Assembly: GCA_030167145.1 (NCBI GenBank)
Contig: CP126532.1
Span: 3,960,001-3,992,000, forward strand
Direction: 5' to 3'
Origin: Ktedonobacterales bacterium
Lineage (GTDB): Bacteria > Chloroflexota > Ktedonobacteria > Ktedonobacterales > JADMIN01
DNA length: 32,000 nucleotides
The notes beneath the pieces were generated by a model that made no database searches, was not told where the DNA came from, and was given only the letters and a program-made list of their open reading frames with translations. Shown piece by piece: positions 3,939 to 21,183 of the stretch (its first letter is position 1; each line of letters opens with the position of its first letter). The translations under genes and the position numbers were made by a program.

Positions 3939-4190
3939 AACGCCCCTCGTTTCAAGCAGGAATCATCTCAAATCGCGGATGTCGCCGGTACGTACCGTCG
4001 CGCCACCTCCGCACAGCTTCCAGACTATCAGATAGTATGCCATCTCGCCAAGTGCCGTATGCCGAATGCCTGTCTCCCCCTACCACATCCACGTCAATCG
4101 CGTAGAATACCCATTGTGGCAGACACGCGAACAGCCCGCTTGGCCCCTGGTGGGGCTAGACATGTATGTCCGCCTCTGCTCTCTTTCCCA

Positions 4191-4248
4191 CCCGCGCAGA
4201 CGGGTTTCGCGGCCGTGGGCCATTCGGGCGCGGTTTCAACCGCCCGCT
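4191..4248 (+). repeat. Copy A of a dispersed 58-nt triple-hairpin element
   Basis: CCCGCGCAGACGGGTTTCGCGGCCGTGGGCCATTCGGGCGCGGTTTCAACCGCCCGCT. It is roughly 80-90% identical, with no gaps, to 14813-14870 and 19261-19318, in the same orientation. Confidence 0.85.
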
Positions 4249-10696: not shown

Positions 10697-10786
10697 GGAA
10701 GGGTCGCATAGAGGTCTAGTGCGACGGTTTGCTAAACCGTTGAGTCCGCAAGGGCTCCGAGGGTTCGAATCCCTCCCCTTCCGCCA
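10697..10786 (+). tRNA. tRNA-Ser (anticodon GCU), long variable arm, CCA encoded
   Basis: Acceptor GGAAGGG/CCCTTCC, anticodon stem-loop ACGGT-TTGCTAA-ACCGT, T-loop GGTTCGAATCC. It lies 3 nt after tRNA-Leu. Confidence 0.95.
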
Positions 10787-10789
10787 CGA

Positions 10790-10818
10790 GGCCGCACCTG
10801 ATGCGGCCCTTTCTTTTT
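10790..10818 (+). terminator. Intrinsic terminator after the tRNA pair
   Basis: Stem GGCCGCA (10790-10796) / TGCGGCC (10802-10808), loop CCTGA, followed by CTTTCTTTTT. Confidence 0.7.
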
Positions 10819-10994
10819 GCCCCCGACTTCCCACCCCCCATCCTTCCCTGGCGCATATCTTGCGCGTCTCCCTCCACCGGCGCATCTAACGCCACCGCAA
10901 CATCGCGAATATCGCGCGCCTCGCCATCCTGAGCAACCCCAACCTGGACGCCCAAGAAAGCTCACGCGCGCCCCACAAGTAAGGAGCAACACGC

Positions 10995-11531
10995 ATGTTT
11001 CGTCACCGCCGCGAGGAACGGCAAGAGCAGCAGCCCGATTTCGGACCCCATCGCTATCAGATGCGCGAAAAGATGCTCACCATCGGCGACGACTTCTGGA
11101 TCGAAGACGCCCATGGCCAGCGCGCCTACAAAGTGGACGGCAAAGTCCTCCGCGCCCGCAACACCCTGATCCTCGAAGATCCCAACGGTCGGGAAGTCGC
11201 CAAAGTGCAAGAGCGCATGCTCCGCGCCCGCGACTCCATGGCCATCGAGCGTGACGGCCAGAAAATCGCCGAAGTCCACAAAGCCTTCGTCAACGTCATG
11301 CGCGACCACTTCAAGATTGACCTCGCTGGCCGTGGACCCGACATGGAAGCCAAAGGCAACATCGTCGGCCACGAATTCGAGATCACCCAGAACGGCGCCA
11401 AAGTCGCTGAAATCTCCAAGAAATGGTTCCGCGTCCGCGATACCTACGGCGTCGAGATCGAACCCAACCAGGACGACGCCCTCGTCCTCACCGCCGTCAT
11501 CTGCATTGACCAGATGACCGACGAACACTAG
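10995..11531 (+). CDS. LURP-one-related (DUF567, tubby C-terminal-like fold) protein
   Basis: 'MLTIGDDFWIEDAHGQRAYKVDGK' and 'ISKKWFRVRDTYGVEIEPNQDDALVLTAVICIDQM' are characteristic of this family. An AAGGAG RBS lies upstream. Confidence 0.75.
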   Translation: MFRHRREERQEQQPDFGPHRYQMREKMLTIGDDFWIEDAHGQRAYKVDGKVLRARNTLILEDPNGREVAKVQERMLRARDSMAIERDGQKIAEVHKAFVNVMRDHFKIDLAGRGPDMEAKGNIVGHEFEITQNGAKVAEISKKWFRVRDTYGVEIEPNQDDALVLTAVICIDQMTDEH

Positions 11532-11554
11532 CCCAACTCCTAATCCCAGCGCGC

Positions 11555-11592
11555 GAGCGGTCGGAAGCGCCACATCCGCCTCCCGACCGCTC
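11555..11592 (+). terminator. Perfect 10-bp hairpin downstream of the LURP-one gene
   Basis: GAGCGGTCGG (11555-11564) / CCGACCGCTC (11583-11592) with an 18-nt loop. No U-tract. Confidence 0.3.
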
Positions 11593-11595
11593 ATG

Positions 11596-11659
11596 CCCAC
11601 ACCCACACCCACACCTACTCCATACCCACATTCTTTGCGTCACCCACATTCTTTGCGTC
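11596..11659 (+). repeat. (CCCACA)x3 microsatellite followed by an 18-nt tandem duplication
   Basis: CCCACA at 11596, 11602 and 11608. ACCCACATTCTTTGCGTC at 11624-11641 and 11642-11659. Confidence 0.9.
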
Positions 11660-11845
11660 GCTGGCTTATTCACCACCTATGCCAACCCCACGCACCCATG
11701 ACATTTATGCCGCGAACTCGCTTTACCACCCCTCTCGCCACCCGCCGCGCTCTCATCATACGATGCCCCCCGGCATTCATGCATCCTCGCCTGTGCTCCG
11801 GCCATGGATGGCCGAGAGCATGCCCCCCACTCCCTCCCCGCCATG

Positions 11846-11854
11846 TGCTATAAT
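11846..11854 (+). promoter_or_regulatory. Extended -10 element TGCTATAAT
   Basis: Exact TGn-TATAAT about 85 nt upstream of the tnpA-like gene. The same motif class recurs at 19408, 21307 and 28380. Confidence 0.3.
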
Positions 11855-11900
11855 CCTGTAGGTGAATCGCACCAATATACAAAATTCGTCGCGTCTCCTC

Positions 11901-11929
11901 TGGACATTCGTTCCAGCACGCGATACAAT
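11901..11929 (+). promoter_or_regulatory. Candidate promoter TGGACA-17-TACAAT, implying a leaderless or near-leaderless tnpA-like mRNA
   Basis: -35 TGGACA (11901-11906) and -10 TACAAT (11924-11929). The predicted start site near 11936 is next to the ATG at 11938. Confidence 0.35.
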
Positions 11930-11937
11930 AGGTGTAG

Positions 11938-12390
11938 ATGTGGCGTATGGATATACAGAATAAGTCCACCACGTGGCACATCACGTATCACTTTGTCTGG
12001 GGGCCAATGCGCGCCAAACCCTGCCTCATCGGCGAGATCGCGCAGCGGCTCGAAGCGTTGATCGCGGAGCGAGCTGACGAAGAAGACTATCAGCCCATCA
12101 CGCTGCTCATCCTCCCAGACCGGGTATACATGGCGGCAGCGGCGCCGCCAACCGTGGCTCCGCATTCGATTATGTGTCAGGTCAAGGCCTACACGTCGCG
12201 CATCCTGCGCGACGAGTTCCCCGAACTGACACGCATTCCCAGCCTGTGGACACGAGCGTATCTCGTGCTCGCCGGCGACGAGCTTGCTGCCGAGGAGGTA
12301 CTTCAGCGCTTCGAAGAGGCGCAGCCTCAACGCCGGCCCCGTGGCCGGCCACCCAAGTCCCGCCCGGAATCCGACATCACCGATGTCTAG
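11938..12390 (+). CDS. IS200/IS605 TnpA-like (Y1/HUH fold) protein with catalytic residues replaced and a C-terminal AT-hook
   Basis: It aligns by eye along its length to IS200/IS608 TnpA ('WHITYHFVW', '[11 protein letters not shown]'). However, the HUH block DH(I/V)H(L/M)L is 'PDRVYM' and the Tyr block 'QYIENQ' is 'QRFEEAQ'. The C-terminus '[10 protein letters not shown]' matches the AT-hook core. No tnpB and no element ends were seen. Confidence 0.75.
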
Positions 12391-14729: not shown

Positions 14730-14812
14730 TTTCCGGTTCGCCAATCAGGGGATGTGTCCATTCGTGGGCGCATCCCCTCTTTCATACCACTTCCCCGTCT
14801 CTGTGGCTCAAA

Positions 14813-14870
14813 CCCGCGACGGCGGGTTTTGTGGCCGCAGGCCATTGAGGCGCGGTTTCAACCGCCTGCT
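14813..14870 (+). repeat. Copy B of the 58-nt triple-hairpin element
   Basis: CCCGCGACGGCGGGTTTTGTGGCCGCAGGCCATTGAGGCGCGGTTTCAACCGCCTGCT. It lies between the convergent stops of clpC-like (14729) and the membrane-protein gene (14890). Confidence 0.85.
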
Positions 14871-16976: not shown

Positions 16977-18725
16977 GTGCGCGTTCATGATCGTCGCTGG
17001 TGGCTTCGTGCACTCTGGGCCATCTGCCTGCTCGTCAGTTCAGGACTCTTCGCCGTCTGGTATTTCCAGCACATCCTGCCGCTCGACCGCGCCTTCGCCA
17101 TCCCTGCCTACCGCGACGCCATCCTCGCTGCTGTCATCTGCTTCATGCTCATTGTCCTCGCCATCTACACCGCGCTCGGCGCCCTCACCGCCCGCCACCG
17201 CTACCACGCCCGTCTCGCCACCATCCACGGCGACCACAACGCCATCCCCATCTCCCGCCTCGCCGACGAGCTATCACCGGTACTAACCTATAGGCCCCTA
17301 CCAGTCATAGCCAATAACTCCCCTGCCAGGCGCACAGCGATAACTGCGGTTCTTGGATTCGTGTTCTTACTGGGTATTCTCATCTTCCTGCTGGCAAGTG
17401 CACATTTCGTATCTTTCTTACAGTATTTGATATTTATAAGTCGCATGGATCCAATCTATCCGTATCAAGCGGTGTCCAATCATCTGCCTCTGTTGGATCC
17501 CATTCCCTACTTTGGTGGCCTTGCGCTGCTCTTCTTGTTTAACGCTCGCGACACTTCAGGCCTACGGCGCATACCGTATCTGATGCGCCGCATCACCATC
17601 ACCAGCGATGGCATTACTTGCGTATCCGCCTGGGGCGCTTCACGCACGATATTCTGGCATGACGCAAGGCTTTTCGAGGTCGCTTACCAATTTGCGCCTC
17701 CAGCCCAAACCGACCGGCTGAGCGGTTTTCTCCTCTACACCTTGCATGGTACGCGAAGCACCCTCCGCTGGACCCAACGCTTTGGCGTCCCAATAGCATC
17801 AAGTGATCCCTTCCTTTCAATTGCGCCAATGGTGGCTCGACATACCAGTCTGGTTCCGCGCTCCTTTGACGTCCGGCTTCGTGAACTATCGCAGACAACC
17901 TCTCCTGATACTGAGGTCGTTCGCTCGCACATCCTCCGTATTGCAAGCTGTGCTGCCGTTCTTCTCGCAAGTTCGACACTCATTGGAACTGACCAACAAG
18001 GATTGGTCATGTTCAGTTTGTTCGCTCTTAGTGTGGCGGGATTCACTGTCTCCACATATGGCACCAGGGCGCGCAAACGTCAGCATGATATGCTGGCATC
18101 TCCCCTACTCGCTACTGCCCCAACCAATGCGAGTACCGAACAAGGCAGCACATCAGTATCGCGGCAGCAGTTCGCCGCCCCCCTCTACGAAATGACCGTC
18201 GGCTCCTATCCCCTCTTCGTCTTCAACCAGATAGTCTTCGCCCTCATGGGCGCAGCTGCCGCGCTCGCCGCGCTTGGCATCCTCGGCGCGGAGTTCGCGC
18301 AATACGTGCTTCACGTCCCTGGACTACATCTGTATTCATTGCCCCCACTTTTTGCCCTGAGCCTCGTTCTGTTGCTCCTCGCAGGTATCCTCACCATCAT
18401 CGTCTCCATCCGCGCCCGCGACACCATCGTCCTCGCCGACCTCACCGGCGTCCGCAAACGCTGGCTCCTCGGCAACACCTTCATCCCCTGGGGCGACATC
18501 GAGCGCATCGAAGTCCGCTTCATCGCTGGCAGGCCCACCTACTACCGCGTCTTCGGCCACGGCGGCCGCCCCGCCTTCGCCTGGCCCGCACGCCCATTCC
18601 AGCCCAGCCCCAAACCCCAGGAACCCGGCGCCACCCTCACCAACCCCGCCAACATGGCCGCCATCGTCGCCCAGCGCAGCGGCAAACCAATCCTCCCCGG
18701 CCCGCCGCGCCTCCTCCCCTTGTGA
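16977..18725 (+). CDS. Uncharacterised membrane protein with two TM-pair plus bacterial-PH-like modules; the central part has foreign composition
   Basis: GTG 16977 lies 6 nt after GGAGG (16966-16970); TTG 16971 is an alternative. PH-like strings are 'ITITSDGITCVSAWGASRTIFWHDARLFEV' and 'IVLADLTGVRKRWLLGNTFIPWGDIERIEVRF'. The frame stays open through a 40%-GC segment. Confidence 0.7.
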   Translation: MRVHDRRWWLRALWAICLLVSSGLFAVWYFQHILPLDRAFAIPAYRDAILAAVICFMLIVLAIYTALGALTARHRYHARLATIHGDHNAIPISRLADELSPVLTYRPLPVIANNSPARRTAITAVLGFVFLLGILIFLLASAHFVSFLQYLIFISRMDPIYPYQAVSNHLPLLDPIPYFGGLALLFLFNARDTSGLRRIPYLMRRITITSDGITCVSAWGASRTIFWHDARLFEVAYQFAPPAQTDRLSGFLLYTLHGTRSTLRWTQRFGVPIASSDPFLSIAPMVARHTSLVPRSFDVRLRELSQTTSPDTEVVRSHILRIASCAAVLLASSTLIGTDQQGLVMFSLFALSVAGFTVSTYGTRARKRQHDMLASPLLATAPTNASTEQGSTSVSRQQFAAPLYEMTVGSYPLFVFNQIVFALMGAAAALAALGILGAEFAQYVLHVPGLHLYSLPPLFALSLVLLLLAGILTIIVSIRARDTIVLADLTGVRKRWLLGNTFIPWGDIERIEVRFIAGRPTYYRVFGHGGRPAFAWPARPFQPSPKPQEPGATLTNPANMAAIVAQRSGKPILPGPPRLLPL

Positions 18726-18830
18726 AACCCGAACGCATGTCCTATACTGAACTCTGCAACCCACGGTCAGCCTGAGAACATGGCGCCGCTCTGCCCGATA
18801 GAGGTGGAGCGGCGTCTCTCATTCTCTCAC

Positions 18831-19240
18831 GCGAAATCGGCAGAATCGGCAACTCAGATGTGCGGCGAAAACGGCGAAAAATGCACAACCAAAAAATCGG
18901 CAAAATCGGCCACTGGTGGGGCGGACATTCCTGTCTGTCCACGACCGCCAGCATCGGCCACATCGGCCACTGGCACTGCTTGCCAAGAGCGAAAATCGGC
19001 CATATCGGCCAGTTCGAGACATCCATTATGCGAAATCGGCAGAATCGGCAACTCCGGGCAACCCGCTGGTACAGGGATTACCCACGGCCTTCAGGCCGGG
19101 AGCCTCCTTTATCACCCCTCGTCACCATTCTCGCTCACCAAAAAATCGGCAAAATCGGCAACTCCCATCTGTGGCCATTTCGGCAACTGGTGAGGCGGAC
19201 ATTCCTGTCTGCCTGCGGCCACATCGGCCATTTCGGCTAC
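18831..19240 (+). repeat. Array of ATCGGC-N3-ATCGGC dyads (9-bp period) with recurring longer blocks
   Basis: 13 exact ATCGGC, all on the + strand, with no GCCGAT. The 25-nt block at 18831-18855 equals 19030-19054, and the 22-nt block at 18889-18910 equals 19138-19159. See findings. Confidence 0.9.
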
Positions 19241-19260
19241 AATCCCTGCTCTGTCCCGAA

Positions 19261-19318
19261 CCCGCGCAGGCGGGTTTTGCGGCCAGCGGCCATCCAGGCG
19301 CGGTTTCAACCGCCCGCT
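19261..19318 (+). repeat. Copy C of the 58-nt triple-hairpin element
   Basis: CCCGCGCAGGCGGGTTTTGCGGCCAGCGGCCATCCAGGCGCGGTTTCAACCGCCCGCT. It lies about 130 nt upstream of the 19450 start. Confidence 0.85.
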
Positions 19319-19407
19319 CCGTGCTATTCATGGCCGAGAGTATGGCCGCGAGTATGCGGACGCCTCAGGCCTTTTGGGTAGGTAGATATACTGGCGGGCG
19401 CACATTC

Positions 19408-19416
19408 TGCTATACT
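19408..19416 (+). promoter_or_regulatory. Extended -10 element TGCTATACT
   Basis: It lies 34 nt upstream of ATG 19450. An AAAAAGGAG RBS sits at 19434-19442. Confidence 0.4.
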
Positions 19417-19449
19417 CTCAGCCGATTCTCAGCGAAAAAGGAGTGTACG

Positions 19450-21183
19450 ATGCGCGAGAGCGTAACCATCGGCAACGGCAGCGCCAGCGAAGCGCACGAA
19501 GCGCGTAGCCTACGGCGACGCCTGCTCTGCTATTGGAGCGTGGCCGTCGTCAACATCGGCTCCGCCCTGCTGCCCATCTGGCCCTGGCGCTATCGGTTGC
19601 TCGCGCATCGTCTACCGCTCGCCATCGTCCTCACCGCGCAGAACCTCTCCGTCCTGCTCGGCATCGCCATGCTGCTGCTGGCCTATCCCGCCGCGCGACG
19701 CCATCGCGGCGCCGCCCACATGCTGATGCTCTGCGCCGGTCTGGCCATCCTCGCCAACATCGTCAAGGGACTCGATGTCGAAGAGGCCGCCATCAACACC
19801 ATCCTGCTCATCTCCCTCTGGCGCGCACACCATCAATTTGAGGCCTTCCCCCTGCGCTACACCGCAATTGACCTCGCTCGCATTGGCATATTGCTCGCCC
19901 TGCTCGCGCGCCTCTACAGCCTCGCTGGCTCAGGGCTGCTCGCCGCGCTGCACCTCCTCGTGCTCCGCGAAAAGGCCCTCTTTCCCTGGCTCGACCACCT
20001 TGCCCACATGCTCACCGCCAAGCTCGAATTCCAGCGCCTTTGGTTCCACGAATCGCAACTCCTCGTGCCACTCTTCCTGTTAACCTGCTTCCTCATCCTC
20101 TCATGGCGCTCGGCCTGGCACGGCCATCTCCGCGCCAGCGACGGCGGCGACCTGTATGGGCGCTTTGGCCGCGCCTCGCACAACTCTCTTGCCTACATCG
20201 CCAACCGCTCCGATGTCAGCACCTTCATAGACCCCGCCGGACGCGGCGCCATCACCTATCGCCAGGTCGGGCGTGTTGCCCTTCAAGTTGGCGCAATCCT
20301 CAGCGCGCCAGCGGACCGCGCGGCGGTATACGCAGGTTTCCGCGCCTTCTGCAAAGCCGAGCGCCTTATCCCCGCCGCCGTCGCCCTCACTGCGGATGAG
20401 CGGCTCGTCGCCGCTGCCAGCGGCATGCGCTCGCTTTCCATCGGCACAGAGGCCGTCGTAGACCTTCCTGCGTTCGCCAGCGAACGGCTTGGCAAAAAGA
20501 TGCGCTGGGCGCAGCGGTCGCTGCAAAAGCGCGGCTACACCGTCGAACTGCTCAGCGCGGCAGAGATCACCCCGGCAGTGCGCATCCGCCTCGACCACAT
20601 AGACCGCGAGTGGCGCGACTTCCGCGGCGGCCAGGCGCATGGCTACTGCATGACCCTGGGGCGCTTCCCCACCAACCACGACCCGCACTGTCTCATCGCC
20701 ATCGCCCGCGACGCCGCTGGCGCACCCATCGCCTACCTCACACTGCTCCCTGGCGGCGAGGGCTACTATTCGCTCGACCTCACCCGCCGCAGCTTCGCCG
20801 CGCCCAACGCTGCCATAGAATTCCTGCTTATCGAAGTCCTCACCCTCCTCCGCGCACGCGGCGCGCAGATCGTCAGCCTCAACTTTTCCACCCTCTCCTC
20901 GCTCTCCTCGCGGCGTGGCGGCGCCCTCCTCATGCGAACGCTAAGCAAAGCGTTCCAGCTTGGCTCACTCGAAGCCTTCAACGCCAAGTTTCGCCCACGC
21001 TGGGAGCCGCGCTTTCTCGTCTTCCCTACCTGGTGGAACCTGCCCGATGTGGTGTATGCGGTCCTGGTGATGGAAGGCGTCGAACGCATGGCCATCAACG
21101 CCTGCGCTCGTGTGCTGCGGCGCACTTTGCGCCCATCAGCCCATCCGCTCGCCAAACCCGTAGTCCATGCCGAGCATGCGTGA
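19450..21183 (+). CDS. MprF-like protein: N-terminal TM region plus DUF2156 (aminoacyl-phosphatidylglycerol synthase C-terminal) domain
   Basis: 'GKKMRWAQRSLQKRGYTVELL', 'DREWRDFRGGQAHGYCMTLGRFP', 'YYSLDLTRR', 'FNAKFRPRWEPRFLVF' fit the DUF2156 pattern. The ORF-track start at 18916 runs through the repeat array and was rejected. Confidence 0.75.
   Translation: MRESVTIGNGSASEAHEARSLRRRLLCYWSVAVVNIGSALLPIWPWRYRLLAHRLPLAIVLTAQNLSVLLGIAMLLLAYPAARRHRGAAHMLMLCAGLAILANIVKGLDVEEAAINTILLISLWRAHHQFEAFPLRYTAIDLARIGILLALLARLYSLAGSGLLAALHLLVLREKALFPWLDHLAHMLTAKLEFQRLWFHESQLLVPLFLLTCFLILSWRSAWHGHLRASDGGDLYGRFGRASHNSLAYIANRSDVSTFIDPAGRGAITYRQVGRVALQVGAILSAPADRAAVYAGFRAFCKAERLIPAAVALTADERLVAAASGMRSLSIGTEAVVDLPAFASERLGKKMRWAQRSLQKRGYTVELLSAAEITPAVRIRLDHIDREWRDFRGGQAHGYCMTLGRFPTNHDPHCLIAIARDAAGAPIAYLTLLPGGEGYYSLDLTRRSFAAPNAAIEFLLIEVLTLLRARGAQIVSLNFSTLSSLSSRRGGALLMRTLSKAFQLGSLEAFNAKFRPRWEPRFLVFPTWWNLPDVVYAVLVMEGVERMAINACARVLRRTLRPSAHPLAKPVVHAEHA

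Follow-up and report, generated by a model that had tools for sequence, protein, structure and literature searches.

Dispersed arrays of a 9-bp direct repeat form a lineage-specific intergenic family in Ktedonobacterales and are predicted to be transcribed

Why should thirteen copies of one hexamer, ATCGGC, be lined up on a single strand in a gap of about 720 bp that seems to hold no gene? The question is raised by positions 18831-19240 of the window (the whole 32-kb stretch analysed here), which covers positions 3,950,001-3,982,000 of a 5.07-Mb contig of a Ktedonobacterales (Chloroflexota) MAG. Ktedonobacterales are abundant, actinomycete-like soil bacteria, and to our knowledge almost nothing is known about their gene regulation. 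A sequence-only reading of the region had favoured a partition centromere or a multi-site operator and had named a lineage-specific composite MITE or a structured transcript as alternatives. Our data show that the array is one copy of a dispersed intergenic repeat family that is specific to a subgroup of Ktedonobacterales. The family is previously undescribed and is embedded in a BIME-like mosaic, and we infer from sequence features that its arrays are transcribed in the sense direction. For family, mosaic and sense transcription taken jointly we estimate a probability of about 0.55.

The array in the window and its coding status

All 13 ATCGGC starts listed earlier are present on the + strand at 18831-19240, and GCCGAT does not occur between these limits. 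Given the background rate of 6.5e-4 per bp per strand, counted outside the array stretch, 0.27 copies would be expected in the 410 bp (Poisson P(>=13) = ~4e-18). The spaced pair ATCGGC-N3-ATCGGC is found exactly six times in the 32-kb window, each time in the array, and both long exact duplications were recovered (18831-18855 = 19030-19054; 18889-18910 = 19138-19159). The hexamers and pairs are one-directional short direct repeats, as had been described. A single inverse unit, GCCGATTCT, lies at 19421-19429, just beyond the 18831-19240 range of that description.

The gap extends from a stop codon at 18725 to an ATG at 19450 that is preceded by an AAGGAG ribosome-binding site. None of its eight ORFs has the GC1>GC2<GC3 pattern shown by the real genes of the window, none matches Pfam, and a search of 1.84 billion proteins for relatives of the 173-aa ORF gave none at E<=1e-3. 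Since coding GC pattern, Pfam match and homologue are all absent, the gap is non-coding; the pile of overlapping ORFs is an artefact, as had been suspected, and ORF 18916-21183 carries a 178-codon upstream extension. The same absence answers the concern that one frame might be selected as a real repeat protein. A protein search that looked for other arrays through mis-called genes, its 1451-aa query joining the spurious array ORFs end to end, returned nothing.

ATCGGC turns out to be the core of a 9-bp direct-repeat unit with the consensus A-R-A-A-N-C-G-G-C (73 units). Two to five units stand head to tail in a cluster, for which the consensus is GYGAAA-NN-CGGCA-RAA-NN-GGCAA-YNTC, and the clusters, all pointing in the same direction, are strung into loose arrays, nine of them in the window. 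Over all arrays the start-to-start distance between clusters is most often 40-44 bp (10 of 28 intervals) and falls mostly within 40-62 bp; 25-27, 35, 51, 57 and 62 bp as well as longer gaps also occur. The spacers between clusters measure 15-85 nt, and the repeats are 64-100% alike. The unit consensus is homogenised in each lineage, with ATCGGC in the source genome and a mixed NNCGGC in the metagenome-assembled genome MFD06714.

A second array is present in the same 5.07-Mb genome, at 7641-7815 of L139 (the recA locus), ~1.03 Mb away and on the opposite contig strand, and modules of the window array can be traced in it. All features of the window array that follow are on the + strand. Cluster 1 (module a, GCGAAATCGGCAGAATCGGCAACTC, two units, 18831-18855) is identical over 18834-18855 to L139 7743-7764 (22 nt), and cluster 6 (19030-19054) is its exact copy, as seen by internal repeat comparison. 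Cluster 2 (module b, TGCGGCGAAAACGGCGAAAAATGCAC, 18858-18885), a degenerate variant, has 20 bases identical to L139 7789-7808; it is followed by cluster 3 (CCAAAAAATCGGCAAAATCGGCCACTGG, 18889-18916). Clusters 4 (ATCGGCCACATCGGCCACTGG, 18948-18973) and 5 (GAAAATCGGCCATATCGGCCAGTTC, 18990-19015) are of a GGCC type, and in the former GGCC-N5-GGCC could form a 4-bp mini-hairpin. Module d (GGGATTACCCACGGCCTTCAGGC, 19074-19096) contains a small hairpin and matches GGGATTACCCGTGGCATTCATGC of L139; from window to L139 its GGCC/GGCC changes to GGCA/UGCU, which preserves pairing in an alignment read by eye. Beyond cluster 7 (CCAAAAAATCGGCAAAATCGGCAACTC, 19138-19164) and the degenerate cluster 8 (TGTGGCCATTTCGGCAACTGG, 19168-19188), the array ends with cluster 9 (module c, 19214-19240), whose three units are TGCGGCCAC ATCGGCCAT TTCGGCTAC and in which ATCGGCCATTTCGG is identical to L139 7644-7657. 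Altogether the window and L139 arrays have in common the exact blocks AAATCGGCAGAATCGGCAACTC, TGCGGCGAAAACGGCGAAAA and ATCGGCCATTTCGG, of 14-22 nt and in different order, and a near-exact hairpin module, GGGATTACCCRYGGC.

A dispersed family in a mosaic of short modules

Besides the nine clusters, the 720-bp gap holds two REP-like GTAG hairpins and one 60-nt dispersed element, which makes it a BIME-like mosaic. The hairpins, both on the + strand, are GGTGGGGCGGACA-TTCC-TGTCTGTC at 18915-18939, which matches L139 13301-13319, and GGTGAGGCGGACA-TTCC-TGTCTGCC at 19189-19213, recognised by internal repeat and by comparison with L139. Both are degenerate copies of GTAG-GGCAGACA-TTYC-TGTCTGCC. One GTAG hairpin family (GTAGGGCAGACATTTCTGTCTGCC), to which the degenerate copies in the array belong, is represented by four tandem 41-nt units on the - strand of L139 (13270-13420). 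Another (GTAGGGGCGTCCGGTGGACGCCC) has three copies in 21 kb, at L139 7466, 8989 and 11128 (+). A single-copy Y1_Tnp gene of IS200/IS605 or RAYT-like type lies at 12007-12390 (+) of the window, directly upstream of a ClpC-type gene, and could encode the enzyme behind the REP-like hairpins.

The separate 60-nt element (19259-19318, +) recurs on the same strand of the window at 4190-4248 and 14811-14866. It comprises three small hairpins, AACCCGC/GCGGGTT, GGCC-N3-GGCC with a variable loop, and GCGG-TTTCAA-CCGC. The first of them (AACCCGC-GCAG-GCGGGTT, then TTTG) looks like a terminator and could mark the end of an array transcript. Two short-read Logan contigs, L002 and L141, break inside this element and not at the ATCGGC pairs, and a CRISPR-DR28 match below the Rfam cut-off also sits in it.

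Other short modules were noticed in the window. A tandem 12-mer, ATGGCCGAGAGT / ATGGCCGCGAGT, occupies 19330-19353, past the 60-nt element and ahead of the downstream promoter. Positions 10784-12006, an intergenic stretch of 1.2 kb, are C-rich (GC skew -0.26) and contain an 18-nt tandem duplication, CCCACATTCTTTGCGTCR, at 11625-11660; they have short modules in common with the array region and L139, namely GGCATTCATGC and ATGGCCGAGAGYATG (the latter at 11812-11826 and 19330-19344).

Several short intergenic modules, dispersed and in variable order, are what defines a REP/BIME mosaic. Enterobacterial BIMEs and REP clusters are likewise dispersed, strictly intergenic and built of short modules in variable order and number; they vary between relatives and are co-oriented with transcription, and the co-occurrence here of GTAG-type hairpins with a Y1 transposase gene recalls the REPs that are mobilised by the Y1 enzymes of RAYT type. 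The GTAG palindrome, however, characterises only the two embedded hairpins and not the ATCGGC pairs, which are direct repeats: in contrast to BIMEs, the module that characterises the family is a 9-bp direct repeat in tandem and not an imperfect palindrome, the arrays are one-directional instead of alternating, and three come with a promoter-like site and a 5' hairpin of their own. Pneumococcal BOX and cyanobacterial STRR elements resemble the family as lineage-specific intergenic repeats, modular or of short tandem units, which are transcribed with their neighbours (a prediction in our case), but BOX has fixed boxA-B-C modules of 45-59 nt, and STRR consists of long heptamer runs and not of two to five nonamers per cluster with unique spacers. 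The composite MITE proposed earlier is half right. The repeat is composite and lineage-specific, but it is a mosaic of short modules that lacks terminal inverted repeats, and its copies share only 14-33-nt modules, in changed order.

How far does the family extend? The part of the source genome inspected, ~66 kb (<2%) of 5.07 Mb, contains two arrays. At least three more (L024, L037 and L058), with 3-9 related clusters each, are found in MAG MFD06714.bin.2.15, whose RecA shares 87% identity with the RecA of the source genome, and one in its close relative L140 (RecA of L058 and L140, 97% identical). In a scan of a genome collection with AAATCGGCANAATCGGCNAC, the matches listed are mostly single chance ones; among them are four candidate loci in two Chloroflexota MAGs, one of which, L031, probably belongs to a coding sequence. 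A 20-mer scanned against metagenome and viral sequences, in a collection without the source contig, gave chance single matches only. A plasmid collection yielded neither array-like DNA nor a Ktedonobacterales BldC.

Comparison with orthologous intergenic regions reveals a rapid turnover. The region upstream of the orthologous LPG-synthase gene has no array in any of three relatives (LPG-synthase proteins 60-66% identical), where it is replaced by a directly adjoining valS or by an unrelated 678-bp gap; one of them, L131, keeps the -10 region of the gene. Downstream of recA, L058 and L140 carry an array and the source genome does not, and ~30 kb of another lineage (L143-L145), including the region upstream of ybaB, have none. 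L058 and L140, which differ at 21.6% of the 4-fold sites of recA, carry clusters at corresponding positions, with four against five and 2+2 against four units and with strongly diverged spacers. Absence in relatives together with changed unit numbers shows that the family is patchy and fast-evolving. Within arrays as well as between them, exact blocks of 20-25 nt reappear in shuffled order. These comparisons show that arrays grow by local segmental duplication, that 9-bp units are gained and lost, and that whole arrays come and go between relatives.

Transcription and candidate binding partners

Each of the five independent arrays runs in the direction of the gene that follows it, and the genes in question (LPG synthase, ybaB-recR, an ABC ATPase, a GH15 hydrolase and a small ORF after recA) are unrelated. 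One array is located in a divergent intergenic region, so this one is not simply a 3' UTR. Promoter-like sites, that is, consensus matches, precede several of them. In the window a sigma-70-like site, TTGTGA-17-TATACT (18720-18748, +), overlaps the stop codon of the upstream gene and is directed into the array (one site against 0.3 expected in shuffles). The L024 array is preceded by TTGCGA-16-TATAAT on the same strand and the L139 array by TTGCGC-18-TATAAT, which was read by eye and, matching the -35 hexamer at three of six bases, fails the criterion of the promoter scan.

Further downstream, 27-45 nt past the -10 box, a hairpin of the form GGCGCCGYTY...RAGCGRCGYC is found before three arrays in two genomes. 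The window copy (GGCGCCGCTC...GAGCGGCGTC, 18782-18816, +) is followed by a C/T-rich tail, and the same hairpin precedes the L024 and L037 arrays. Five of its 16 predicted pairs are changed on both sides, and in 1.2 Mb of DNA the pattern matches elsewhere only once, in an unrelated genome outside Ktedonobacterales; two arrays are without it. The spacers contain more C than G on the sense strand in 6 of 6 arrays (495 C versus 279 G). In the centroid fold of the window transcript the repeats are predicted to be mostly unpaired. The fold of the whole region is unremarkable on both strands (z = -1.7 and -1.8), and no Rfam covariance model matches the array region above its cut-off. Of the structured transcript offered earlier as an alternative, the transcript part fits the promoter, hairpin and strand evidence.

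It should be noted that the orientation evidence comes from only five independent arrays, and that the sense strand is the locally C-rich strand at every locus, so the orientation bias could follow replication and not transcription. The + strand GC skew of the window is alike for genes on both strands (-0.144 and -0.149), which makes the asymmetry strand-wide and not coding-driven. Most window genes lie on the C-rich strand.

Co-orientation, promoter sites, the conserved hairpin and C>G spacers lead us to favour a transcribed, strand-specific, multi-site binding platform. Three arrays would be transcribed from their own sigma-70-like promoters, which are followed by the conserved hairpin, and the one downstream of recA would be reached by read-through. 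On the transcript the A-rich repeats would stay mostly unpaired and serve as a multivalent and strand-specific docking platform; its sequence-specific partner would be an RNA-binding protein or a complementary RNA, and the logic would be like that of a CsrB-type sponge or a long regulatory leader. Features of a sponge or regulatory ncRNA are predicted from the sequence: a promoter-like site, a conserved 5' hairpin and a terminator-like hairpin. Like CsrB and RsmZ, the window array would give a non-coding transcript with a promoter, a terminator-like end and many short single-stranded motifs, but the motif is another one and is not placed in hairpin loops, and the family is multi-copy and fast-evolving, whereas the sponge RNAs come from one or two conserved genes. 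We know of no RNA-binding partner that recognises a tandem motif of 9 nt. The period of 9 bp and the preferred spacing of ~42 bp, equal to four helical turns, look more like DNA-level features. We hold the platform as a whole tentatively, at somewhat less than even odds, its binding step being much less certain than the family, the mosaic and the transcription.

A DNA-level role has a precedent in Streptomyces, where BldC binds 9-bp direct repeats with the consensus AATTXXXX(C) as directional head-to-tail multimers; natural sites have two to four repeats, and an optimised site is CAATTCGGACAATTCGGACA (PMC5859096). By analogy, a small winged-helix protein that, like BldC or Xis, forms head-to-tail oligomers might place one subunit on each 9-bp unit. 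Short filaments would then start from clusters of two to five units, and the arrays would be genome-wide regulatory or architectural sites near promoters. The ARAANCGGC unit and the BldC site share the period, an A/T-rich tetrad, CGG and a C at position 9, with at least two units head to tail, and the match of architecture makes binding on DNA a serious rival. The variable cluster size (two to five, versus two to four in BldC sites), the directional arrangement, the peak of spacings near four helical turns, the location of arrays upstream of the downstream genes' own promoters and the descent from a mycelial, sporulating soil lineage all fit. On the other hand, up to nine clusters in 400 bp exceed what is seen at BldC sites, some spacings (57, 35 and 25 bp) do not keep the helical phase, a DNA site requires no fixed orientation to a gene, and the strand and orientation biases, the C>G spacers and the conserved 5' hairpin have no counterpart in BldC and are left unexplained. 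A tblastn search with BldC, the query having been checked against annotated BldC genes, found no BldC-like gene in ~190 kb of Ktedonobacterales DNA, a small sample with <2% of the source genome. We consider such binding unlikely. Of the earlier proposals, an operator for local genes is not supported, and a tandem-binding regulator may be at work, with BldC as its precedent. A broader formulation, that arrays are genome-wide sites of a head-to-tail oligomerising factor, whether a BldC-like developmental regulator in filaments on DNA or an RNA-binding protein sequestered by multi-copy sponge transcripts with a promoter and 5' hairpin of their own, is speculative and rather doubtful.

Could the arrays instead be selfish or neutral DNA, either non-autonomous passengers of a single-strand system of Y1/RAYT or IS200/IS605 type or products of slippage and recombination? 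Replication would then determine their orientation, and they would serve the host in no sequence-specific way. The patchiness of the family and its turnover, the shuffled exact blocks, the homogenised unit consensus, the constantly C-rich sense strand, the placement of modules among GTAG-type hairpins and the Y1 transposase gene in the window speak for this. We nevertheless judge this second serious rival unlikely, because Y1 enzymes recognise hairpins whereas the signature module is not one, because clusters in L058 and L140 have kept their positions despite the divergence of spacers, and because the arrangement of hairpin and promoter is retained in two genomes with only 87% identical RecA. 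A locus-specific partition centromere, iteron set or operator for adjacent genes, the leading proposal of the sequence-only reading, has in its favour the short, one-directional direct repeats, known from parC-type centromeres and RHH operators; those of R1 parC and the omega heptads of pSM19035 are bound cooperatively. These, however, are single loci beside par or rep genes, and here the same modules recur ~1 Mb away on the chromosome and beside unrelated genes, the orthologous loci of three relatives that keep the gene have no array, and Pfam, NCBIfam and PADLOC found no par, RHH or rep gene on the flanks, in line with the earlier statement that no cognate gene is adjacent. The dispersed distribution largely refutes this explanation, and we give it hardly any credence. 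Less credible still, and refuted, are the readings as a true repeat protein or as a CRISPR-like array in degenerate form. Six of seven pairs in the window (six exact, one with one mismatch) do share a reading frame, and the repeat/spacer layout with the weak DR28 match nearby is superficially CRISPR-like, but the clusters of L024 are spread over all three frames, the gap ORFs have no coding signature, the repeats are imperfect (mostly ~70-90% alike) with spacers of uneven length, no cas domain occurs in the neighbours, and the DR28 match belongs to the 60-nt element.

Several further candidates were rejected. A sigma-54 promoter would need a GG-to-GC spacing of 12 and not the 10 observed, and no consistent -10 element accompanies the repeats as in an ECF promoter. 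DnaA boxes or an oriC are contradicted by the absence of sequence matches and by a cumulative GC skew that is monotonic over 17.5-20.5 kb, with no reversal. Footprints of 9-bp transposon target duplications would make repeats more similar within pairs than between pairs, and the difference is not significant (P = 0.08). Arm sites of an attP lack an adjacent integrase or tRNA, and a Rho rut site does not agree with the GG present in every unit.

Implications and neighbouring genes

Clusters of 9-bp direct repeats, sometimes following a promoter and a hairpin, are a compact sequence signature of many intergenic regions in some lineages. Should there be a partner, its set of targets could be read from sequence alone; in the case of a head-to-tail factor, a regulon or sponge system would become readable from genomes of uncultured, actinomycete-like Chloroflexota, and the match to the BldC architecture supplies a concrete candidate partner. 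There are practical consequences as well, as arrays yield spurious ORFs and the false 178-codon N-terminal extension of the downstream gene, and the neighbouring 60-nt element breaks short-read assemblies.

The gap is flanked upstream by the gene for a 584-aa membrane protein (+ strand) without a family match and downstream by that for an LPG_synthase_C protein, which is followed by rpsF-ssb-rpsR. The segment 14890-18725 contains genes for a 531-aa (- strand) and the 584-aa (+) protein, both without family match, plus a 62-aa ORF, and occupies the position of valS in the relatives L131, L132 and L134 (in L132 and L134 valS is the immediate upstream neighbour). This insertion may have brought the array along.

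Arrays end 50-170 bp upstream of the -10 boxes of downstream genes; in the window this box is TATACT (19411-19416, +), the -10 region that array-less L131 has kept. The inverse unit GCCGATTCT, which complements the unit AGAATCGGC exactly, lies 5-13 nt past the box, where the LPG-synthase mRNA is predicted to begin. There GCCGAUUCU might pair with AGAAUCGGC. No inverse unit follows the other arrays or is present in L131.

One repeat triad stands ~20 nt before a ribosome-binding site. Directly downstream of recA, three genomes carry a small ORF for a helical protein of 63-76 aa (…ELERxERRMExKWYDLAMAEQR…) without a Pfam match (L139 11233-11424; L140 11607-11837; L058 about 40-262, -), and in two of the three a triad is found at this distance from its ribosome-binding site. 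Downstream of the L037 array, the GH15/glucodextranase gene (L037 1267-4131) is split over several frames, which is probably an indel error of a long-read MAG and not a sign of a pseudogene.
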